From: an uncultured Pseudomonadales bacterium
Lineage (GTDB): Bacteria; Patescibacteriota; Microgenomatia; UBA1400; PJMF01
Assembly (NCBI GenBank): GCA_964502565.1
Contig: CAZCXA010000001.1
Span: 3,806 to 67,805 of the forward strand
Direction: 5' to 3'
Length of the DNA: 64,000 nucleotides
Position 1 is the stretch's first letter. Each line of letters opens with the position of its first letter. This document shows positions 7,534 through 61,052 of the stretch, one piece after another. The translations under genes and the position numbers were made by a program. The notes beneath the pieces were generated by a model. That model was given only the letters and a program-made list of their open reading frames with translations. It had not been told where the DNA came from and ran no database searches.

Positions 7534-8499
7534 TTATTCTCTTACTAACTGGGCTGTGACCACTCCCCTTCTTAAATAGGTTCCTTCTGGCACGCAGGTA
7601 ACCAGTTTTAACTGCTGACTGCTGTAATCTTGAGACAAGATATATGTATCGCTCGGCTTAACCTCTGTTTTATCAATCACTGCATAAGTATATTTAACAT
7701 CGCCGTAAGTTAAAAAAACTCGATCACCTGGCTCAAGTGTCATAATTGTACTAAAAATTGTGTTATAACGTCTGGGGTTAGTCTCTTTAGGATTGTAAAA
7801 CTGTCGTAACAAAGAATGACCAAAAACAACTGGTGCGCCTGGTTTTCCAGGTAATGATGTGCCTGGATATTGGATTAGGCTTTCATCAAGATTAGTGCCA
7901 CCAATTTTAACCGTGGCGTTATAAACCTCAAGTTTGGGGATCTCCAAAACATACTCTCCGACTTGCTTAGACAACAAGCTCGTGCGGTTAACTAGGTCGA
8001 TCACCACTTGATCTTCAAACCAGTTTGATAAATTGGTGTAATCCAACTCAGCATCAACAATAACTGGACCTCGTCTAACTTGACCCATTTCCTGCGTAAT
8101 ATCTCCCACCATAGTAGTTTGCGCCACCACCAACGGAGTCATGCTTAAAATTTTATCTTGTGGGATGGGCGCAATTAGGGTGGGTGTTGTTGATAAATTT
8201 TTTAAATAGAAGCTAGCGATCGGCATCACTGCGCTTCCCAATAAAAACAAACCGACCACAATAAAAAAGATCGGTACAAAACTTGCCCCAAATCTAACAA
8301 CCCTGGGTATTGAAAGTTTTGCCTGACGGCAGTGTTGATCGTCAATATTCTGTTCCACCTGCTCGGTTACCATAAGTCTGGTTAGTTTTGCTGAAACCTC
8401 AGCCTCAACCTCCTCATAGGTACCAAACTTTAGCAAAGCTTCTCGATACAGTTTGATTAACTCTTGACGATCAATGCCCAAGTTATCGTGTTTTGACAT
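7534..8499 (-). CDS. Sortase-family transpeptidase with N-terminal cytoplasmic segment and TM anchor
   Basis: TM helix (FVPIFFIVVGLFLLGSAVMPIA) followed by sortase fold signatures: VVFGHSLL (His), TLEPGDRVFL, LVTCVP (TLxTC Cys), RRGVV (Arg). Confidence 0.7.
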   Translation of the reverse strand: MSKHDNLGIDRQELIKLYREALLKFGTYEEVEAEVSAKLTRLMVTEQVEQNIDDQHCRQAKLSIPRVVRFGASFVPIFFIVVGLFLLGSAVMPIASFYLKNLSTTPTLIAPIPQDKILSMTPLVVAQTTMVGDITQEMGQVRRGPVIVDAELDYTNLSNWFEDQVVIDLVNRTSLLSKQVGEYVLEIPKLEVYNATVKIGGTNLDESLIQYPGTSLPGKPGAPVVFGHSLLRQFYNPKETNPRRYNTIFSTIMTLEPGDRVFLTYGDVKYTYAVIDKTEVKPSDTYILSQDYSSQQLKLVTCVPEGTYLRRGVVTAQLVRE

Positions 8500-8604: not shown

Positions 8605-10887
8605 CTATTCTTTAATTTTAATCGAGATGCGATTAGAGTCATTGGGTAAAAACTTAAAAAATCGTCCAGAAAAAGAAGGTGAGTGGGAAAATGTGACTTG
8701 ATCAATGGTTTCTTCTTCTCTTAAGAGTGAGCTAGCTTGATCAAAGGAAACGCCGATCAACCTTGCTTGAAAATCTTGCTCAGCTAGCTCGGCTCGACAT
8801 TTTCCTGAAATCTCAACCTCTAGCCGAGTTTGAGAGGCGTCTTCTTCATCATCTATAATCCTTGAAATAACATTTAGGCTGTCATCGATAAAAAGATAGT
8901 TTTCTGGGATATCATTTTCTAAAACCTTTTTAGCTAAAGTTAGTAAATCTCTTGTGGTGTAACTTAAACCCTCTACAGCCAAAGTTAAGGATAAAGAAAC
9001 ATTTTCAAGTTCCTCACCAACCTCGTCGCTATATTTTTGCTCAACAATTTTATAATTTTCAGTGGGCACAATATAAATATCCTGACTGAAATTATCTTCT
9101 AACTTTTCTCGAGCTTGTTTTAGTAATCTTTGTTTTAAGTTAGCTAATAGCTCTTTGTGGTCAGCATCGGCCACAACCCTTATTTCTCGACTTGAGCCTC
9201 CAGTAAAATCACTTTCTGTTCGAGCAGAGTAGGTGTTATCACTAAAATCAGCAATTTTTAAATCTGTTTTTTGGCTTATGTTGCCTTCCACCCCAATTTC
9301 TCGAGCAGTCACCTTGGCACTCTTTTTGCCAAACTCCTTCATCTCTGCCTCACCACCTTTGGCTTCTTCGATAGAAGCAGCAGGTACTGTAATCTCCTCG
9401 TCTAACTCAAACTCGAGATCCTCGGTTTTTAAGATCGTGTTTTTAGCAAATGTTTTTTCTTCACTCGTCTTGTTAAAAATAACCACCAAACCTTTAGCTT
9501 TTTCTCCGACTGGCTTTACTCCGGTTGTTTGAATAGTATCTTTATCTGAAACCTCCTCTGTGATAACTTCTGCTTTAAGCAGACTGTTAACTGGGTCTGA
9601 TTGCGCAACTGAAGAACTCAAACTAATCACAGAGTTTTTACTTAAATTTTTTGTTTGAGGAGCAATCTGGACCTCAACCTGATAGTTCATTTTAAGCAAA
9701 AAGTAAAATACTAACACTGAGATGACTAAGCCTAAAACAACACTGAGAATTATAACTGGCTTGAGAGCTAATTTTTTCTTCTTATTTTTTTTACCAGCAG
9801 TGTCAATCTCAACAAAACTCGAACCTTGTTTTTCATCAGGTTTTTCAAGTTCAACAGGCCTGAAGTTGTTAACCTCTTCGTCTTGAGCTGTTTTCAATAA
9901 CGATTGAGTCGTTGCTTCGGTTTTACGCGCAAAGTCTGGTTGCTCAAGCTCAGGTTGTTCAGTTGGCACTCTTGGGCTAGTTTGTGCGCTGTTGATCGAG
10001 TCTGAGCTTAAAGCATCTGCCAGTTCTTGTGAATCAACTGGTTGACTCATCTGGGAAAACTGCACTGCTGACACTAAACCAGCCGATCCAGCTTGAACCG
10101 AATCAATCTCTGCATCATGAGGAATTAAACCTTTTTGTTTAGCAACTACCTCCCCATAATATTTAGTCACGATGTCCAAAAGCTGGTCTGAAGTGATAAT
10201 CTCAATAATAGGTTTCTGCACAAAGTTAAAATCTTGTGTCCAGTTTAATGAAAACAGCTGTTGCTGATAAAGTATTAACTTTTCAGGATCAATCACGGCT
10301 GAAAGCAAGATAATGTTAGGTGGAAGCTTGATGCCATTGGTTGCAAAGTTCTGCTCCAAGCGAGCTAAAGCTTCCTGAAGATCAGATACGATATCCTCAG
10401 ATCGCCCCACTGATAAAGAACCAGCCACTTTGCCTTGGCGTACAATCATTAAATCTAAGGATTGAGCGCCAATATATAAAACAATTGAAGAGAGAAAGCT
10501 GTTATTCTTAAGCAAGTGCTGAAGTGCGGCCTCGGTGGTTGACACAAACCCAAGTGGTTTTAAAGATAGCGACTCGGTAAGATTCTTAAGGTCTTTTTCA
10601 TGCTCTGCTGAAATCTTGTTGTTCTTGATCCAACTCGGCTCAAAGGCAAACAATATTTCGTCAGTTTCTTCTGATCTATCACCTAAATCCTGCAAACTTT
10701 CATCCATTTGTACGAGCTGTTCTTCAGTACTATTGTAATATCTTACTTTTGATTTACTTAAGAGAATAATTTTTTGTTCAAAAACTTGCCACAGACTAGA
10801 ATGAATCGATTGATCGGTTATTAAAGAAAGAATAAACAGGTTCTTTTTATCTGGTTTTTTTTTGGAGAAAAGATTTGGCAGGCCCAT
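8605..10887 (-). CDS. Hypothetical 760-aa bitopic membrane protein: N-terminal FtsA/PilM-like actin-fold domain, low-complexity linker, single TM, ~370-aa extracytoplasmic domain
   Basis: N-terminal LFILSLITDQSIHSSLWQV... and IGAQSLDLMIVRQGKVAGSLSVGRSEDIVSDL resemble phosphate-1/phosphate-2-like regions of FtsA/PilM actin-fold proteins; TM at ILSVVLGLVISVLVFYFLL; domain call is by eye only. Confidence 0.4.
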   Translation of the reverse strand: MGLPNLFSKKKPDKKNLFILSLITDQSIHSSLWQVFEQKIILLSKSKVRYYNSTEEQLVQMDESLQDLGDRSEETDEILFAFEPSWIKNNKISAEHEKDLKNLTESLSLKPLGFVSTTEAALQHLLKNNSFLSSIVLYIGAQSLDLMIVRQGKVAGSLSVGRSEDIVSDLQEALARLEQNFATNGIKLPPNIILLSAVIDPEKLILYQQQLFSLNWTQDFNFVQKPIIEIITSDQLLDIVTKYYGEVVAKQKGLIPHDAEIDSVQAGSAGLVSAVQFSQMSQPVDSQELADALSSDSINSAQTSPRVPTEQPELEQPDFARKTEATTQSLLKTAQDEEVNNFRPVELEKPDEKQGSSFVEIDTAGKKNKKKKLALKPVIILSVVLGLVISVLVFYFLLKMNYQVEVQIAPQTKNLSKNSVISLSSSVAQSDPVNSLLKAEVITEEVSDKDTIQTTGVKPVGEKAKGLVVIFNKTSEEKTFAKNTILKTEDLEFELDEEITVPAASIEEAKGGEAEMKEFGKKSAKVTAREIGVEGNISQKTDLKIADFSDNTYSARTESDFTGGSSREIRVVADADHKELLANLKQRLLKQAREKLEDNFSQDIYIVPTENYKIVEQKYSDEVGEELENVSLSLTLAVEGLSYTTRDLLTLAKKVLENDIPENYLFIDDSLNVISRIIDDEEDASQTRLEVEISGKCRAELAEQDFQARLIGVSFDQASSLLREEETIDQVTFSHSPSFSGRFFKFLPNDSNRISIKIKE

Positions 10888-47742: not shown

Positions 47743-48423
47743 TTATAAAAGCAACAACCCAATTCCTATCAAGGCTAGGCCTGAAGTTAGCCATTTAAGC
47801 CAGCTTAGTGGCCCTGATTGAGGCAACTCTTCAGGAAGTACAGGTTGTCCGCCCTTAGTGGTTGTGCTTTGAGTAGCTGTGGGGATTGGGGTGATAGTTG
47901 AACTTACAGTATATGTTCCCGCAATATTGCGAGCACATTGCTCATCGGTCGCTAATAAATTATCGCCTTCTCCAGTGGGTAAGATGTTGGAGTCCTGATG
48001 ATCAGCGCTACTACAGCGGAATGCAAGCGTAATATTGCCCGAGCTTATCTTGGGACTAACGGTAATTGTTGCCATCTTGCCACTGCCGGTCACTCCGCTG
48101 GTTTTGTCTAAGCCTAAAGTACCAGTAATTGCCAGCTCACCGGCAACGGTAGTATCTGTGCTAATGTTGTCAAAAAAATCATTAGCAGTAATGCCAACAA
48201 TATTAACATGATCGGTATTATAGGTGACTATGGCTACTGCAGAGTCTACTTCTGCGCCTTCTGTGTCAATTCTTACCTCAATCTCGGTTGTTCCAGCGAT
48301 GGTGCCGGTACTGGGAGAGAACAACAGTCTAGCAGCTAAAGCTGGTTTAACAAAACCGTGTGCAACAACCGCAAATGATAAAAAACTTATTATTAAAATG
48401 GGCAGTTTTAATCTTGTTTTCAT
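47743..48423 (-). CDS. Secreted cohesin-like beta-sandwich protein with C-terminal hydrophobic anchor
   Basis: Signal peptide MKTRLKLPILIISFLSFAVVAHG; IEVRIDTEGAEVDSAVAIVTYNTDHVNIVGI resembles the cohesin core (…FTLSYDPSVLEVV…); T/S-rich linker; C-terminal LPEELPQSG + hydrophobic tail. Confidence 0.45.
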   Translation of the reverse strand: MKTRLKLPILIISFLSFAVVAHGFVKPALAARLLFSPSTGTIAGTTEIEVRIDTEGAEVDSAVAIVTYNTDHVNIVGITANDFFDNISTDTTVAGELAITGTLGLDKTSGVTGSGKMATITVSPKISSGNITLAFRCSSADHQDSNILPTGEGDNLLATDEQCARNIAGTYTVSSTITPIPTATQSTTTKGGQPVLPEELPQSGPLSWLKWLTSGLALIGIGLLLL

Positions 48424-48843: not shown

Positions 48844-50259
48844 ATGCCTAAACCTTATCCAAATCGAAAAAAAGAAACCTTAATCGGCAGTTTTCTTTTC
48901 ATTATCTTCAGTATCGTGATTATGGTTAGCGTCTCTCGTTTTGATACCATTCGTGATTTTTTTTCACAAGCCATGAGTAATCCCGCCAATATCGTTATTG
49001 ATGGTCAAGCAGTTGTGGGACCGCTGAATCGTTCTTGGCTCAACCTGGCTCAAGGGGGCGAAAGTCATGACTGGCGTATGACCGATATCAACAATAAGGT
49101 TAGTGCGCTTAATCCTGAATATATTCGTCTTGACCACATCTTTAGCTTTTATGATATTGTGCAAGGTTCTCCGCAAAATCTAAGTTTTAATTTTTCCAAA
49201 CTTGATTTAATCTTGAATGATATTTTAGCAGTTGGTGCCAAGCCCTACATAGCGCTAAGCTATATGCCTGCAACTATTTCTCAAGGTGATATCGTGGATT
49301 TGCCTCATCATTGGACAGACTGGCAAATAACGATCCAACGAACAGTTGAACACATTTCTGGTACGCGTGGGATTGAGGATGTTTATTACGAAGTTTGGAA
49401 TGAACCTGATTTATTTGGTAACTGGAAAACTTATGGCAACAAAAACTACTTAACTATGTATTCTTATGCAGCCTTAGGGGCGCAGGCAGCTCAGCGTCAA
49501 CCTCATGTTAAAAACTTTTATTTAGGAGGTCCTGGTACCACGGTGTTATTCAAAAACTGGTTCCATGCTCTCGCTAGACACGCCATCAACAATAATTTAA
49601 AACTCGATTTTTTTTCTTGGCATCGCTACAACCATAACCTAGATATTTTTGAAAACGATCTAGAGCAAGCTAAGACATGGTTGGCGCGCTATCCACAACT
49701 CAGAGGATTAAAACTACATGTTACAGAATGGGGTCCTGATAGTGAAAACCACCCTGCCTATGACAATACTTATGGCGCTGCACACGCGGTTGCGGGTGCC
49801 ATTGTCTTAAATCAACTTGTTGATCGTGCATTTGTGTTTGAAATTCAAGATGGTAAGGACCCGAATAATCAGTCTCACTGGGGCAGATGGGGATTATTAA
49901 CACATCAGGATTTTGGTTCTCAACCTAAACCCAGATATTATGCCTTACGTCTATTAAACAAGATTGGAGATCAAAAATTATATATCACAGGTCTGGGTAG
50001 TTGGGTAAAAGCCATTGCCACGCGAAATGATCGAGATAATATTGATTTTGTAATGGCTAATGCGGATCGGAGCTATCATCGTTATGAAGTCGTGCCGATC
50101 ACCTTTACCAATATTCCTGCTGGAGAGTATAATTTAAACCTAGAATATCTAGACGGAAAACAGGAAAGCATTCCATTGACAACAAATGAACCAAGGCTCA
50201 GAACCGAGGTTCACATGATGCCAAATACAGTGGTATATGGAGAACTTGTTAAAAAATAA
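48844..50259 (+). CDS. Membrane-anchored clan GH-A glycoside hydrolase (GH39/GH5-like)
   Basis: N-terminal TM; catalytic acid/base VYYEVWNEPDL and nucleophile LHVTEWGP typical of (beta/alpha)8 clan GH-A. Confidence 0.6.
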   Translation: MPKPYPNRKKETLIGSFLFIIFSIVIMVSVSRFDTIRDFFSQAMSNPANIVIDGQAVVGPLNRSWLNLAQGGESHDWRMTDINNKVSALNPEYIRLDHIFSFYDIVQGSPQNLSFNFSKLDLILNDILAVGAKPYIALSYMPATISQGDIVDLPHHWTDWQITIQRTVEHISGTRGIEDVYYEVWNEPDLFGNWKTYGNKNYLTMYSYAALGAQAAQRQPHVKNFYLGGPGTTVLFKNWFHALARHAINNNLKLDFFSWHRYNHNLDIFENDLEQAKTWLARYPQLRGLKLHVTEWGPDSENHPAYDNTYGAAHAVAGAIVLNQLVDRAFVFEIQDGKDPNNQSHWGRWGLLTHQDFGSQPKPRYYALRLLNKIGDQKLYITGLGSWVKAIATRNDRDNIDFVMANADRSYHRYEVVPITFTNIPAGEYNLNLEYLDGKQESIPLTTNEPRLRTEVHMMPNTVVYGELVKK

Positions 50260-50317
50260 AAATATTTAGTATTAAGAGTAGCCAACTAAAAGAACTCAAA
50301 CTCCAGTGGAAAAAAAG

Positions 50318-51487
50318 TTAACTTTTGCTTGAGTTTGCCACAATCATTTTTTTACATAACAAACTTATCTGTTCTATAAAGTTTTCCTGAGAATATTTCT
50401 GAGCATTAAGCTGAATTTTTTTCGGAATAAAACTTTTATACAACTTGTTAAACCGTTTGATCGCCTCTACCAACCCAGCAACCGTTAAATCCTTAAACAG
50501 TATGCCATTAACTTTATCTTGAACTGTGTATCGCGGACCACCAGAACAATGCGCGATTACTGGAGTACCTGCCAGCATCGCCTCGATTGGCACAATACCA
50601 AAATCTTCATCCTCTACTGGAAATAGCAAAGCCTTGGCACTTGCGCAAAGCCTAGCCAGCTCCTCATCATCAACCGCACCTAAAAACTCAATCCTCTCAC
50701 TCGCAATGGCTTTCAGATCATCTAACATTTGGCCAGTACCCACTACCTTGAGCTTAACAGCTAACTTATCACAAGCTTTAACAGCCAGTTCTGGATGTTT
50801 TTGCAAACCCAAGCGCCCCACATATAAATAAAAATCTTGTGCAGAATCTTGTTTTATCTTTAATAAGCTTGAGGCTGATACTGGCAAGCTCACCGGTGGA
50901 TAAATGACCTGAGAATCACGCTTGTAAAATTTCTTGATTCTTTGCTGAGTTTCTGGCGAGTTGGCAACAAACCGATCAACCTGTTGAGCATGTTTAAAGT
51001 CAATAACCCTCATGTAATGATTAATAATGTTGCCACAAAGTTTAATAACCGGATTTTTTTTCCAGTTTGACATGGTGGAATACCCATATAAAGCCCGCGG
51101 TGGTGTGTGGCAGTAGCAAAGATGATTCTTGTTTTTTGTTTTAATCGCCTTAGCCTCAAAGGCATTGGAAGAAGAAATGATAATATCAAATTCTGACAGA
51201 TCAAGGGACTGAAAAGCGCGAGGCGCTAAAAAACGCAAAGGAGAGTATAACTTATTATGCAAAGGAATCTTGGCAAACCAAGTTTGGCGAATATCCCAGT
51301 TTTGAAATCGAGACCAATGGGCGCCGAGCGCGTGCTTGTCCAAAAAGGCAACATAAACTGGCGCTGAGGGAAACATTTTATGCAAAGTTTCTAAAACCCG
51401 CTCGGCGCCACCATACTCGCGCAAAAAATCATGTATTAAAACCTCTCTTGGAGAGTTTAAAGGTTTTTTAACCGAGTTTTGTGACAT
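50318..51487 (-). CDS. Family-4 glycosyltransferase
   Basis: E-x7-E motif region FPVEDEDFGIVPIEAMLAGTPVIA; GT-B fold. Confidence 0.8.
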   Translation of the reverse strand: MSQNSVKKPLNSPREVLIHDFLREYGGAERVLETLHKMFPSAPVYVAFLDKHALGAHWSRFQNWDIRQTWFAKIPLHNKLYSPLRFLAPRAFQSLDLSEFDIIISSSNAFEAKAIKTKNKNHLCYCHTPPRALYGYSTMSNWKKNPVIKLCGNIINHYMRVIDFKHAQQVDRFVANSPETQQRIKKFYKRDSQVIYPPVSLPVSASSLLKIKQDSAQDFYLYVGRLGLQKHPELAVKACDKLAVKLKVVGTGQMLDDLKAIASERIEFLGAVDDEELARLCASAKALLFPVEDEDFGIVPIEAMLAGTPVIAHCSGGPRYTVQDKVNGILFKDLTVAGLVEAIKRFNKLYKSFIPKKIQLNAQKYSQENFIEQISLLCKKMIVANSSKS

Positions 51488-55898: not shown

Positions 55899-56768
55899 TT
55901 ACAGTTCTTCAATCTCAATTTCAGGAGAAATTTCTTGATGATCGTCGATTAGCTGTAAATATTTTTCAGTAGTAGTGATACGTTTGTGACCTACTAACTG
56001 TGATACATATACCAAAGGCGTGCCAGCTCTCAACTGCTCAACAATGAAGGTGTTGCGCAGATCATTAACAATAGCATCCTGAATACCAGCAAGCTTAAAA
56101 TGACGATTAATGGCTGCTCTGATATTTCTTACTAAAAAGGGACGGCAAGTCTTGGTTAAAAAGATGCATTTTTCCTTAGCTCTAGGACGTACTTTTAAAT
56201 AATCCATCAATGCTTGTTTAGCTGCTTTATTCAATGGTACTTTTCGACCACCTCGGCTCTTATAGGGTTGAACTTGAATAATACCTCTTTCCAGATCTAC
56301 ATCATCGGTTTTTAGGTTTGCTAACTCACTAATGCGCATTCCTGTTTGCAAAAGTAACTCTACCACAGCAAAAATTCTAACATCTGACCGACAAGCATCT
56401 CGCAGAGCTCGGTACTCCATTTTTGATAAAAAACGAGATGGTTTTTGCTCGAATTTAGGATGTGAAATTTCAGAGGCAGGATTGTTCTCAACTAAACCTT
56501 CGTTCTCTAAAAATCTAAAAAAAGATTTTATCGAGTTGATTTTTCTAGAGATCGATTTATTAGCATAGCGCCGACTCTTTAGTAGCTCCTTAAATTGATT
56601 GATATCTTCATGAGTAACTTCCGAAGCCAGTTCCTTCCCTTGATCTAGAGCATACTCAGCCAACTGTTCTAAGTCTTTAACATAAGCAATCACTGTAGCC
56701 GTGGCCTTGCCGTTTGACTCTAAATATTGACGATATTTTTGTTGTGCAACTGTTAGAGAAATAGCCAT
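55899..56768 (-). CDS. Tyrosine site-specific recombinase (XerC/XerD-like)
   Basis: Core-binding + catalytic domains; R...HxxR (LVGHKRIT)...Y (EKYLQL) catalytic residues; 289 aa without phage-type arm-binding domain. Confidence 0.85.
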   Translation of the reverse strand: MAISLTVAQQKYRQYLESNGKATATVIAYVKDLEQLAEYALDQGKELASEVTHEDINQFKELLKSRRYANKSISRKINSIKSFFRFLENEGLVENNPASEISHPKFEQKPSRFLSKMEYRALRDACRSDVRIFAVVELLLQTGMRISELANLKTDDVDLERGIIQVQPYKSRGGRKVPLNKAAKQALMDYLKVRPRAKEKCIFLTKTCRPFLVRNIRAAINRHFKLAGIQDAIVNDLRNTFIVEQLRAGTPLVYVSQLVGHKRITTTEKYLQLIDDHQEISPEIEIEEL

Positions 56769-56921: not shown

Positions 56922-57284
56922 ATGAAGAACATAGTGTATCACCCCCTAGCTATTCTTATGACCACTGTTTTGGTAATTATTGCAATTTTTAGTCTACGCA
57001 ATAATCTAAAAAGGCTTTCCCTATCTCAAGAAAACTTAAAAAGTGCCCAACTGGCGTATGAAAAAGTAAAACAGGATACAGCAAAGGACAAGGCGTTATT
57101 AAACCAGTTTCAGCATCCTTTTGTTCAAGAAAAAATTACAAGAAATGAGTTGCTAAGACAGAAAAACAATGAAATATTGATCAAACTCCCTGATATTGTT
57201 CTTGAACAAAAAAAACAAGATCCGATCCCGCAAAAAACAGTTTTTGAACAGTGGAAAAAAGTGCTCGAGATAGGCAAGCAGTAA
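56922..57284 (+). CDS. FtsB/DivIC-like septum-formation initiator (TM + coiled coil)
   Basis: N-terminal TM then coiled-coil; size and architecture only. Confidence 0.35.
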   Translation: MKNIVYHPLAILMTTVLVIIAIFSLRNNLKRLSLSQENLKSAQLAYEKVKQDTAKDKALLNQFQHPFVQEKITRNELLRQKNNEILIKLPDIVLEQKKQDPIPQKTVFEQWKKVLEIGKQ

Positions 57285-57508: not shown

Positions 57509-57682
57509 ATAAAAAATCACCTAAATCAATCTTGAAAAAAATATTGATAATTGATTTTAAAGAAAAAATGTATTTTATTTAAACAGACAGTTCAACTGAT
57601 GATTAACCAAAAAAATACCGTTGGTTGATTATACCAAATATTATCTTGTATAATAAACCTTTGAAACAACCCAATTCAACAA

Positions 57683-57822: not shown

Positions 57823-60156
57823 ATGTTCAGCGTGCAACAAAAAAAAACCAAACTTCTGTTGATATTTTCTCTTGTTGTTTTAACTGCCTTGGTCTTGATC
57901 TTCTCTTATCAAGTTAAAAAGGAAACCAGTTTTGAGTTCGAGGCTCAACAAACTCATCAGGGAAGAATTGTGCATAACCCACACCAGGGCATCTTTCAGT
58001 GCCATTCAATTACTGAAGCTGGGGATGAGGTGTATATTAAGGGCGGAGGAATAATAATTAAGTGGGGCGATTTTCAACCTCTTAATAACAATCAGTTAGA
58101 CCGAGAAAAAACCAACCACTTAATCAACCAGTTAAAAGCTCTTAAACAAAAAAGTAAAAAAGCCTATATACATGTCATGATTTATGAAGAGCCTGGCAGA
58201 GATGACATGATTAACTCTATTCCTCAATGGATTAATGCTCATGATGATGATCCCAGCACTGACCAAATAGAAATCATAAGAGCCTTTGTCCGCTGGAAAG
58301 GCAACACGCCCCAATACAGACTCTATCCTGCTCCCTGGGGTAAAAAATATCAGGATAAACTTAAAAAGTTTTTATCTCTACTGAATCAAGAGTTTAAGGA
58401 TGCTGGTGTTCTGGACACCGTTGAGTATTTTGAGCCCTCTGCAGGGGGTATTTGGGGAAGCACTCATTTATGGGTGCCTGATGATCAGCTTACTAGTTTT
58501 GCTAGAGCTGCTGGTTGTAGCGACACAGACTGGACCTGTTTAGGTGTGGCATTTAACAGGGGTGTGAATGAAGTAATTCAAACATATTTATCAGCATTTC
58601 CTACAAAATCAGTCATGATGATTGGTGGCACTGGTGCTCACCGGGAGGCAAATTATACCTCTCTTAATCAATTAATTGATCGCTATGGAATGAGAGTGAT
58701 GTATAAATCTGCTGGGTTAGGTGCAAGTTATGAGAATTCCTGTGGACTTAGGTCAGAGATAACTGATCCCATATGTAAAGGGTCTTTGGCTAAGACCAAA
58801 TGTGGTCAAGAACCGTGGCTAAGTACAGCTAGTGGAGCTTTTAATCCAGGAGATGTTTGTGGAAAAAACTATTTTCAAACTTATGAGGCTTCATTAGCGC
58901 AAGAATCAATCAGTTATTACTGCCTTTATTCTTATGACATCCCCAATCAAACTGAAACAAATGAGTACCTGGCGAGAAAATTTGCTTCCCAAATTAGGTT
59001 AGCCGAACATGAAATAATAAGCCTAGAAAATAAAAACCTGCGTTTAAAATTAACATGGAACAATGAGGGTAGTATTCCCTTAACTGCACCGTTAAAAATT
59101 GGAGAGAAGTGGCAAACTTCATCTTATAAACTTTTTCTCGAACTAGAAAAAAACAATACAGTTGCTCACTATCAGGAAATTGAGATTCAACCTCCAACCA
59201 ACACCTGGGTTCCTATAAATCATTTTTTTACTACGACTCAAGATGCAGTTTTCAATCTTAATGCAAACTTAACTGGAGCCTATGATATCTATGTTGGTTT
59301 AACTGATCCTAATGGTGAAAAAGAGAGGTTTGCTCTTATTAACCCTGAAAGCGACAATGATATTGTCCAGAGAAGATACTTAATTGAAAAAAATGTTGAT
59401 GTTAACAGCACCTATACCCCTAAAGCTACTCCTACTCCTACTTCTACTTCAGGTGCGTCGCCCAGGCCCACTTCTGGAGCTACACCTTCAAGTAGTGGAG
59501 AGATTAAATTAAATCTCATTATTTCTTTAGATGGAGTGCCTTATGTTGAGGGTTTAAACCGTTTCCATCCGCTTGATGTTAATAAAGAGGTTGAGATTGC
59601 AGTTTTTTTGATCAATGTCAAAAATTTACCGGTTCATAGACAAGCAACCTTTGTTTACCAACCAGATTCTGAAGTTTATCAAACCAAACAAGACCTTGTT
59701 TATCAGGATCTTCCCTCTGGTCCCTATATGATCATGCTGAAAGGTCCCAAACATTTAGACATGCGGTTCTGCTTTACCGATGATAAGGCTGATGGCAACT
59801 GTACTGTTAAGGAGTTAATCAGGGCCTCGGTTGGTGCAAGTGGTTATAAGTCTTATGCTCAAGCGAAACAAGATAAATTTATCTGGCTCGCAACAGGTCG
59901 TAGTCATAACTTAAACCTGTCAAAGGTCCCCTTATTAGCTGGTGACCTACCTATTTCAGGACAGGATAAAAATACACAAGATGGTGCGGTTAACATTTAT
60001 GATTACTCATTTATTCTGTCTTGTCTTAATAACCGTCGTGATTATGCCTGTATTCAAAGAGCTGATATTAATTTCACAGGACAGGTTGACAATATAGACT
60101 TAAGACTAATGAGGAGAGGCTTTACCGAGTCTTTGATGACAAAAGCATATCAATAG
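57823..60156 (+). CDS. Large Cys-rich secreted protein: N-terminal TM/signal anchor, putative (beta/alpha)8 hydrolase-like domain, beta-rich middle domains, Pro/Thr linker, C-terminal dockerin-like double Ca-loop module
   Basis: C-terminus has two ~22-aa segments DKNTQDGAVNIYDYSFILSCL and ADINFTGQVDNIDLRLMRRGF fitting D-x-N-x-D-G-x-V-N-x-x-D + hydrophobic helix of dockerins; linker TPKATPTPTSTSGASPRPTSGATPSSSG. Confidence 0.5.
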   Translation: MFSVQQKKTKLLLIFSLVVLTALVLIFSYQVKKETSFEFEAQQTHQGRIVHNPHQGIFQCHSITEAGDEVYIKGGGIIIKWGDFQPLNNNQLDREKTNHLINQLKALKQKSKKAYIHVMIYEEPGRDDMINSIPQWINAHDDDPSTDQIEIIRAFVRWKGNTPQYRLYPAPWGKKYQDKLKKFLSLLNQEFKDAGVLDTVEYFEPSAGGIWGSTHLWVPDDQLTSFARAAGCSDTDWTCLGVAFNRGVNEVIQTYLSAFPTKSVMMIGGTGAHREANYTSLNQLIDRYGMRVMYKSAGLGASYENSCGLRSEITDPICKGSLAKTKCGQEPWLSTASGAFNPGDVCGKNYFQTYEASLAQESISYYCLYSYDIPNQTETNEYLARKFASQIRLAEHEIISLENKNLRLKLTWNNEGSIPLTAPLKIGEKWQTSSYKLFLELEKNNTVAHYQEIEIQPPTNTWVPINHFFTTTQDAVFNLNANLTGAYDIYVGLTDPNGEKERFALINPESDNDIVQRRYLIEKNVDVNSTYTPKATPTPTSTSGASPRPTSGATPSSSGEIKLNLIISLDGVPYVEGLNRFHPLDVNKEVEIAVFLINVKNLPVHRQATFVYQPDSEVYQTKQDLVYQDLPSGPYMIMLKGPKHLDMRFCFTDDKADGNCTVKELIRASVGASGYKSYAQAKQDKFIWLATGRSHNLNLSKVPLLAGDLPISGQDKNTQDGAVNIYDYSFILSCLNNRRDYACIQRADINFTGQVDNIDLRLMRRGFTESLMTKAYQ

Positions 60157-60245
60157 TCTGTTATAGGGTCACACAAAACTTTTTTCTTGTGCAAAAAAAT
60201 TTTTGTTTTTAAATAAACAATTATAAATCTAATATTAAAAACACT

Positions 60246-61052
60246 GTGCATAAACAAAACATTACTCAATCTAATCAAGTTTCCAATGAGAGGTATGTGA
60301 AACAAAAAAAAAGTTTATTTAAGAAAATTTTTTGTCAAAAGGAAAACAATGACAATAAATTAACAGGAAGTGTTTTTAATAAACAAAAATATTTCTTTAT
60401 TTTAACCGGTTTACTTGTAGTGTTGGTGTGTCTAAGTTTTTTTCTAATTATCAAGTATAAAGTTGTTGATCTTAACCAGCTAACAAATCGTTCCTTGGTT
60501 ATGGATCAGGCAACTGATGAAGAACTTCTATCTGAAGAGGAGTTGATATCTCGTTTAAAGATTGAGGAAAGTATGCGCAACATCACTTCAGTTCACACAG
60601 ATTTAAATGAAATTAGTGAATCAATTCAGCCAAATATTGAACAAACCGCAAAGTTAAGTATTACTAGCACAAAAAAAAGTTATCTTAAGGGAGAGTTAAT
60701 TCAAGCTGAGGTCTGGCTTGAAACCGATGTTGTTCCTGATGGAGTGGAGTTTGCGATAAAGTTTGATCCGCTAGTTTTAAGCCAAGTTGGGTTAATCCAC
60801 GATAGTAGTTTTGGTTCTTTTTTAGTCAATCAAGTTTCAACCGAGACTGGCACGATTAACACTGTTCTATTAAGAAACCCTGAAGAAAAGGTGGTTTTGA
60901 CTCAACCGTTGTTAATCTTGAAAATATCTGCAACAGCTAATCAGGTTGGTCAAACTTCATTAATTTTTGATCGAGAAAAAACCGGTGTCGCAGCAGCTGG
61001 CGGACAAAAAATGCTCTCAAACATAGAAGATTTAACTTTAAAAATTTTATAA
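60246..61052 (+). CDS. Membrane-anchored cohesin-domain protein
   Basis: N-terminal TM (FFILTGLLVVLVCLSFFLII); C-terminal 140 aa AEVWLETDVVPDGVEFAIKFDPLVLSQVGLI...TANQVGQTSLIFD matches cohesin beta-sandwich pattern (…VGAFDFTLSYDPSVLEVV…). Confidence 0.5.
   Translation: MHKQNITQSNQVSNERYVKQKKSLFKKIFCQKENNDNKLTGSVFNKQKYFFILTGLLVVLVCLSFFLIIKYKVVDLNQLTNRSLVMDQATDEELLSEEELISRLKIEESMRNITSVHTDLNEISESIQPNIEQTAKLSITSTKKSYLKGELIQAEVWLETDVVPDGVEFAIKFDPLVLSQVGLIHDSSFGSFLVNQVSTETGTINTVLLRNPEEKVVLTQPLLILKISATANQVGQTSLIFDREKTGVAAAGGQKMLSNIEDLTLKIL

Follow-up and report, generated by a model that had tools for sequence, protein, structure and literature searches.

Bacteria in the candidate phyla radiation (CPR, Patescibacteria) account for a large part of bacterial diversity, have very small genomes and are believed to lead a life attached to other cells, and how they build and arm their surface is poorly known. 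How does such a cell hold an exported protein at its envelope? The question is raised by a locus at positions 57823-61052 of a 64,000-nucleotide stretch of contig CAZCXA010000001.1 (the window), in which the gene for a 777-amino-acid (aa) protein, P1 (57823-60156, + strand), is followed by the gene for a 268-aa protein, P2 (60246-61052, + strand, GTG start). Elsewhere in the window are genes for a secreted 226-aa protein, P3 (47743-48423, - strand), a 471-aa glycoside hydrolase (GH) of family 39 (48844-50259, + strand) and a 321-aa sortase-domain protein (7534-8499, - strand). A first-pass annotation, made from the letters alone, had placed these five open reading frames (ORFs) at the same coordinates and had proposed that a cohesin-dockerin interaction assembles them into a surface-display or glycan-processing complex, something like a minimal cellulosome. 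Scanning the window ORFs with our own hidden Markov models (HMMs), we find exactly one dockerin, in P1, and two cohesins, in P2 and P3. We argue that the locus probably specifies a cohesin-dockerin tether of one tier, by which a Microgenomates bacterium displays an exported protein on its envelope. Judged from the sequences, the system looks like a general surface plug-and-socket, not a cellulose-degrading machine. Close homologs come from metagenome-assembled genomes (MAGs) of Candidatus Shapirobacteria and Woesebacteria (Microgenomates group, Patescibacteria/CPR).

P1, an ORF with 24 homologs, consists of an N-terminal hydrophobic signal or anchor (aa 7-32), a Cys-rich catalytic-like domain, a PT linker, an X-like module and a dockerin. 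The dockerin (aa ~706-768; 59938-60126, + strand) was found in three ways. A leave-one-out HMM, built from the dockerins of the homologs with the window sequence excluded and run on the 268 window ORFs, matches P1 aa ~719-768 at E 1e-7 and no other ORF. Pfam Dockerin_1 matches 12 of the 24 P1 homologs (best 8.8e-8), several of them as precomputed annotation, and orthologous copies pass its gathering cut-off in the relative loci L014 (31.1 bits) and L013 (23.2 bits) and in the homolog P0041 (25.4 bits). The P1-family profile, run against the PDB, matches almost exclusively dockerins (E 2e-5), and the best PDB match of P1 itself (phmmer) is the X-Doc of A. cellulolyticus ScaA, 4wi0_B. The C-terminal dockerin that the first-pass annotation had assigned to the 777-aa protein thus stands. 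The X-like module in front of it (aa ~561-705, ~140 aa; 59503-59937, + strand), seen in X-Doc alignments and with an xdoc HMM, holds a C650/C660 pair and the motif ...KGPKHL..FC..., and it occurs together with the dockerin in proteins that are otherwise unrelated; Pfam gives no family for the isolated module. X-like module and dockerin together (X-Doc) appear to resemble the anchoring X-Doc dyad of type II/III systems, where the X module is Ig-like and packs against the dockerin.

A dockerin is expected to have two tandem segments of ~22 residues, each with a 12-residue calcium loop (D at position 1, N/D at 3, D/N at 5, backbone at 7, D/N at 9 and D at 12) followed by a helix. The two segments of P1 lie at aa 708-735 and 748-767. 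Segment 2 fits this pattern, with a canonical loop 2 (D748-I-N750-F-T752-G-Q-V-D756-N-I-D759, that is D-x-N-x-T-G-x-x-D-x-x-D) before helix 3. Segment 1 fits only if I711-T718 is counted as an insertion: alignment with relatives gives loop 1 as D708-L-P-[ISGQDKNT]-Q-D720-G-A-V-N724-I-Y-D727, with eight inserted residues, followed by helix 1. The first-pass annotation was right that both segments are present but had misplaced the register of the first, given that DKNTQDG read as D-x-N-x-D-G is one residue too long and loop position 1 is D708 of AGDLP. The dockerin of ScaA carries a four-residue Ile-Gly-Gly-Thr insertion in its first calcium loop and still binds calcium (PMC5141474); that insertion lies at the same site as the longer one of P1 and is a solved precedent for it. 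The linker between the segments holds a Cys pair, C734/C743, conserved in the subtype described below. A type I assignment, as the first-pass annotation had it, was rejected: type I dockerins have near-identical duplicated helices, which give a dual binding mode, and no X module, whereas in P1 helix 1 (YDYSFILSCL) is unlike helix 3 (IDLRLMRRGF), loop 1 is enlarged, and in front of the dockerin stands a conserved module of ~140 aa that varies in step with it.

P2 has a short cytoplasmic N-terminal tail, a single transmembrane (TM) helix (aa 47-77; 60384-60476, + strand; hydrophobicity peak 3.05, helix 47-79 in the AlphaFold2 (AF2) model), a helical linker and a C-terminal cohesin (aa 130-268; 60633-61049, + strand). 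This layout fits a membrane anchor with its N terminus inside and its C terminus outside, and it agrees with the earlier description of a membrane-anchored neighbour with a C-terminal 140-aa cohesin. A word-indexed homolog search with P2 returned P2 alone; an exhaustive HMMER search with aa 120-268 returned 70 relatives, nearly all of 180-290 aa and with the domain at the C terminus. Pfam Cohesin matches 45 of 61 P2-family relatives (best 3.2e-11), and the family profile finds solved cohesins in the PDB at E 6.8e-10, with the best sequence matches to type II. The AF2 model has a pLDDT of 93-98 over aa 130-268 and the nine-stranded flattened beta-sandwich (jelly-roll) of the cohesin fold, and the top 50 Foldseek matches are all cohesins. 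In superposition, the compact domain comes closest to type I cohesins, despite the type II sequence-profile matches. It does not fit type II, whose members have an alpha-helix between strands 6 and 7, two beta-flaps and a size of ~170 aa. The best-conserved stretch of the P2-type family is T-x-VAAAGGQ-(D/E)-(V/I)-L, close to the final strands (aa 247-259; 60984-61022, + strand), with G253 invariant; it is absent from the P3 family and is a candidate dockerin-contact surface.

P3 is a second secreted cohesin protein, as the first-pass annotation had supposed. It comprises a signal peptide (ending ALA|A), a cohesin (aa 31-176; nt 47896-48333), a Thr-rich linker, and LPQSG followed by a hydrophobic tail (aa 197-226; nt 47746-47835). 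Among its 28 homologs, P0021 is named 'cohesin domain-containing protein [Candidatus Woesebacteria bacterium]' by NCBI. The AF2 model (pLDDT 85.5) retrieves only cohesins among the top 50 Foldseek matches in the PDB (best E 1.4e-8, target TM-score up to 0.79). A search of PDB sequences with the P3-family profile gave no match, and Pfam Cohesin matches 9 of the 28 family members (best 1.1e-4). BLASTP finds no similarity between P2 and P3; aligned as families with hhalign, the two match with a probability of 95.7% (E 9e-9).

What ties P1 to P2 is their arrangement across relatives. We compared seven loci: the window, L013 (a Woesebacteria genome) and five metagenome loci retrieved by a cohesin-only peptide pattern. 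In all seven, an X-Doc gene is followed on the same strand by a P2-type cohesin gene, and in each of the five metagenome loci the gene directly upstream of the cohesin ends in an X-Doc (xdoc HMM E 1e-34 to 1e-45). In L013 a 711-aa protein has an unrelated, CBM4_9-bearing N-terminus and an X-Doc 43% identical to that of P1 (219 aa; P1 aa 562-771); its gene lies directly upstream of one for a 243-aa protein, the cohesin of which shares 44% identity with that of P2, and the P3 ortholog comes next. The cargo joined to related X-Docs varies: a subtilase, CBM4_9, Big_2 and an endostatin/DUF1554-like domain were found, and a DUF4832-related domain in the window. The dockerins beside P2-type cohesins share one subtype, GDLPISG..QDGxVNIxDYSFxLSCL...C..RADxxY..QVxNIDLxLLR, with the loop-1 insertion and the Cys pair, and P1 homologs that have no adjoining cohesin (P0041, P0043) bear different dockerins. 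A profile scan of the genome contigs with the P1-family alignment gave only four loci. We consider a functional coupling of P1 and P2 to be supported by the gene order in seven of seven loci and by a dockerin subtype that tracks the P2-type cohesin gene, and from synteny and subtype we infer that the X-Doc of P1 pairs physically with P2.

A different anchoring is seen at L006, a locus that shares synteny with the window (groES-groEL ... integrase-tRNA synthetase). Here the P1 homolog (P0034, L006:8001-10217) has no dockerin, ends in ...PVAGFGDWLNNFKIGLGAIGIGLMLLLFL, a tail of the same type as that of P3, and has no cohesin gene next to it. The gene lies between groEL and the integrase/tRNA-synthetase genes and is inverted relative to window 57823-61052, with a direct anchor signal in the place of the X-Doc. 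The comparison suggests a local rearrangement with a changed mode of anchoring, and given this swap, a dockerin with its cohesin gene and a direct anchor signal would be alternative solutions at one locus. This bears on a reading in which the modules do not bind each other at all and are independent adhesins or ligand binders towards a host cell or matrix. For some cohesin or dockerin modules outside cellulosomes no partner is known, and the cohesin-dockerin interaction proposed here is a prediction from sequence. For dockerin-bearing proteins of other CPR bacteria, targeting of host glycans has been proposed (PMC10633639). Against independent binding stand a gene pair that is strictly conserved while its cargo is shuffled and a dockerin subtype specific to loci with P2-type cohesins, and the L006 swap points to the dockerin as a stand-in for a cell-anchoring signal. 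We regard independent binding as quite improbable.

Under the tether reading, P1 would be exported by means of its N-terminal hydrophobic signal, with cleavage presumed. P2, encoded directly downstream, would be held in the cytoplasmic membrane by its one TM helix, with the single cohesin outside. The two genes are predicted to be co-transcribed because no terminator-like site was found in the P1-P2 intergenic interval and a strong hairpin follows P2. The X-Doc of P1 would then bind calcium and plug into the P2 cohesin, keeping P1 at the cell surface, as the modules and their conserved pairing suggest. P3 would be secreted and attached by the 7534-8499 sortase through LPQSG, with processing presumed, and would serve as another socket, linked to the wall, for the same dockerins or for others.

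Several observations weigh against this reading. Pfam Dockerin_1 scores 20.4 bits on whole P1 (E 5.8e-4) and 22.8 bits on the isolated X-Doc fragment, both below the gathering cut-off of 22.9 bits, and neither P2 nor P3 has a Pfam Cohesin match at E <= 1 (cut-off 24.1 bits). Loop 1 lacks the canonical position-3 ligand in addition to carrying the eight-residue insertion, and loop 2 has Thr at position 5; calcium binding stands as a prediction. The hydrophobic segment at P1 aa 7-32 is without a clear AxA cleavage site; if uncleaved, it would already anchor P1 in the membrane and the dockerin would serve another purpose. The seven loci belong to related Microgenomates genomes, and shared ancestry may in part be behind their gene order. 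Finally, in four of the seven loci (L013, L015, L016 and L017; among the five metagenome loci, three) the P2-type gene has a P3-type cohesin gene directly behind it, and synteny is therefore silent on whether P2, P3 or both are the partner.

The sub-threshold scores of P1, P2 and P3 are what one would also expect if the C-terminal repeats were EF-hand-like calcium loops of a generic kind, or a chance motif, and the supposed cohesins generic Ig-like beta-sandwiches. A check against PF00963 and PF00404, which the first-pass annotation had proposed, gives a divided answer: the three window proteins stay below the cut-offs, whereas members of their families match and AF2 with Foldseek returns cohesin folds. 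With the leave-one-out match added, the EF-hand or Ig-like explanation is largely refuted and in our view extremely improbable. The partner question leaves more room. The true partner of the dockerin could be P3, or both cohesins, with P2 in another role such as a transient membrane-proximal receptor. This would agree with the adjacency of P3-type to P2-type genes, which is seen in L010 as well, and with the resemblance of P3 to the sortase-anchored ScaE, whose structure 2zf9 is among the Foldseek matches of highest query TM-score (0.53). However, in the window P3 lies 9 kb from P1-P2, in L011 and L012 P3 is present with no X-Doc gene adjoining, and the adjacency of X-Doc and P2-type genes is invariant where that of P3-type genes is not. 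We think a P3 partnership unlikely, though it deserves serious consideration, and we retain P2 as the favoured socket.

The tail of P3 suggests how a wall-linked cohesin might be attached. Across the 28 homologs, which are 35-70% identical overall, the tail QPxxPEELPQSGPxxWLKWITSGLALIGIGLLLL is near-invariant and better conserved than the cohesin; within LPQSG, L200 and G204 are invariant and P201 is present in at least 90% of sequences. In signals of the LPXTG type a pentapeptide motif is followed by a hydrophobic stretch and then a positively charged tail. The tail of P3 ends in 19 hydrophobic residues with no charged tail, is the only one of its kind in the window and is matched by none of the NCBIfam sorting-signal models. 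It may be a CPR-specific sorting domain that is recognised as a whole, and not a plain LPXTG signal. The sortase domain at 7534-8499, noted in the first pass, is clear (Pfam Sortase E 4.1e-18); its protein has an N-terminal extension of ~180 aa with a TM segment at aa 64-99 and falls in none of the NCBIfam classes C, D, E, F and GN (17-36 bits against cut-offs of 140-166). Going by the motif and the presence of a sortase, this enzyme probably processes the LPQSG signal of P3. Next to the sortase gene, a 760-aa ORF (8605-10887, - strand) has a weak, sub-threshold match to Wzz (chain-length determinant) and no match in NCBIfam; it may encode an envelope protein.

Parts of this arrangement have counterparts in known systems. 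In the type III ScaE/ScaB X-Doc system of Ruminococcus flavefaciens, ScaE is linked to the wall by sortase; it has one cohesin, a signal peptide, a linker and a C-terminal sorting signal, as in P3, and its partner is a dockerin that follows an X module, as in P1. Unlike ScaE, P3 has the motif LPQSG without a charged tail, followed by a hydrophobic tail of invariant sequence, and its cohesin matches that of ScaE (2zf9) in fold at 8-10% sequence identity in the fold alignment. Furthermore, here an enzyme-like cargo is attached directly, not a scaffoldin, and there is no cellulolytic context. The type II pairs SdbA-CipA of C. thermocellum and ScaB-ScaA of A. cellulolyticus (2b59, 4u3s, 4wi0) likewise use an X-Doc dyad for surface attachment, and the ScaA dockerin has its first-loop insertion where P1 has one, with four residues instead of eight. 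In the GH84/GH33 toxin complexes of Clostridium perfringens and the Archaeoglobus fulgidus cohesin 2xdh, the modules sit in large multidomain enzymes or their partner is not known, whereas the window has a dedicated small anchor protein and a conserved cassette. Several features set the window apart from these systems: an N-terminal TM helix anchors a single cohesin; the cohesin fold is compact and type-I-like, and its proposed partner is an X-Doc-like dockerin; the insertion in calcium loop 1 varies, and the linker is disulfide-capable; and the conserved cassette, of two or three genes, occurs in CPR bacteria with cargo that is shuffled and mostly non-cellulolytic. Some of these proteins already bear a cohesin or dockerin label from annotation pipelines, and in a Saccharibacterium one dockerin protein was reported to be essential (PMC10633639). 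Our literature search found no description of the cassette, the anchor types or the pairing logic in Microgenomates, an absence that is not proof.

Is the tethered protein part of a glycan-degrading machine? The cargo domain of P1 (aa ~40-530; 57940-59412, + strand), delimited by the invariant columns of the family alignment, is joined to the X-Doc by a Pro/Thr/Ser-rich linker (aa ~530-560; 59410-59502, + strand) read from the translation. P1 is Cys-rich, as the first-pass annotation had remarked, with 12 Cys, or 1.54%, where 20 housekeeping ORFs of the window have 0.42%. Eight of the 12 are invariant or nearly so within the family. The cargo is probably disulfide-stabilised. Five Glu are also conserved (E201, E204, E330, E440 and E452). 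Pfam DUF4832 matches 12 of the 24 homologs, weakly, and not P1 itself, and covers the C-terminal part of the cargo domain. It is an uncharacterised domain that occurs in Gram-positive exopolysaccharide (Pel) loci (PMC7112168). The cargo (aa 40-530) has no GH family match in Pfam and no PDB sequence relative by profile search, and a GH-A-like cargo finds no support, given that the P1 family, aligned with the GH39 of the window by hhalign, matches it with a probability of 0.4%. Two invariant family motifs, E201-Y-x-E204-P (aa 200-210) and T-K-C-G-Q-E330-P-W (aa 325-332), recall the acid/base (N-E-P) and nucleophile Glu of TIM-barrel glycosidases, a likeness at the level of the motifs. The cargo is possibly polysaccharide-active.

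The glycoside hydrolase at 48844-50259 is, as the first-pass annotation had it, a membrane-anchored member of clan GH-A: it matches PF01229 (Glyco_hydro_39) with 99.3 bits, where the cut-off is 26 (E 3e-28), over profile positions 33-415 of 472, and one member of its cluster is named 'beta-xylosidase' by JGI. The gene order GT4-GH39-P3-HrcA-GrpE-DnaK is kept in L011, L012 and L013 (window block 48844-51487). In L013 this block is interrupted by the X-Doc/P2-type cassette, which lies between GH39 and P3, and P3 is followed by a subtilase gene. A minimal cellulosome, in which cohesin-dockerin pairing brings P1 and GH39 together into a polysaccharide-processing machine, would thus draw on a genuine GH39 that is a conserved neighbour of P3, on the weak relation of the P1 family to a domain of Pel loci (PMC7112168) and on the one related X-Doc protein that bears CBM4_9. 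However, GH39 is anchored by an N-terminal TM segment of its own and carries no dockerin by the dockerin HMMs, and nothing beyond the conserved adjacency to P3 ties it to the cohesin-dockerin system; its inclusion in a complex, as first proposed, is not borne out. Cellulosomes combine a multi-cohesin scaffoldin and a carbohydrate-binding module (CBM) with dockerin-bearing cellulases or hemicellulases. The window has no multi-cohesin scaffoldin, no CBM3 or other CBM and no GH5/9/48 cellulase, a two-cohesin adaptor occurs only in the relative L010, and the sole dockerin cargo has neither a GH match nor similarity to GH39. Related X-Docs also carry subtilase, Big_2 and endostatin-like domains. 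We therefore set the cellulosome idea aside as improbable and keep to a tether for varied cargo.

The genomic surroundings include housekeeping genes, with rpoB, alaS, pnp, ftsH, hrcA-grpE-dnaK and groES-groEL in the window. Upstream of P1, the best sigma-70-like promoter match is TTGATT-18-TATAAT (57625-57654, + strand); it is a candidate only, given that the number of matches in this region is not above chance. The hairpin after P2 (61118-61149, + strand) is a perfect 14-bp stem-loop (AAAAACAGGAGAGT...GCTCTCCTGTTTTT) with a T tract, flanked by runs of A and T between the convergent P2 and groEL genes, and is probably the terminator of P1-P2 and probably bidirectional. Between an integrase-like gene (55899-56768) and P1 lies a 120-aa ORF (56922-57284, + strand) with an N-terminal TM segment and no family match; L006 has a 117-aa ORF at the equivalent position.

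The tether of the window may be one version of something wider. In the Ca. Shapirobacteria contig PEVD01000032 (L010:1173-4644) the system is compact and has two tiers, in this order: an enzyme with a dockerin, a 514-aa adaptor with a signal peptide, two cohesins and an X-Doc, a 201-aa TM-anchored cohesin and a 210-aa cohesin anchored through LP..G. The adaptor passes both Pfam cut-offs. The next gene in this row encodes a 216-aa TM protein that ends in one dockerin-like half-segment (FDIDKNGVVNTFDWFEY). L005 has two adaptors of cohesin and X-Doc together with further dockerin proteins. A Microgenomates-wide display cassette is conceivable, in which any cargo is fused to the X-Doc subtype and met by a single cohesin with an N-terminal TM helix and a single cohesin with a sortase signal, the cargo being shuffled among proteases, lectin-like and glycan-active domains and the DUF4832-related enzyme, and the dockerin interchangeable with a direct anchor; it would be the chief means by which these ultra-small, probably host-dependent cells arm their surface for scavenging or host interaction. 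We offer this generalisation tentatively, as a plausible idea that falls somewhat short of an even chance.

Cohesin or dockerin matches in MAGs should not be taken as evidence of cellulolysis. The modules described here would make small pairs that can be expressed, a ~65-aa dockerin with its X module and a ~140-aa cohesin, open to direct biochemistry and possibly of use in protein-engineering toolkits. If the tether reading is true, the cassette would mark which proteins are surface-exposed and provide a testable protein-protein handle in an uncultured radiation and, with cargo that can be exchanged, would account for the way in which varied exoenzymes and binding modules stay at the envelope of these cells.

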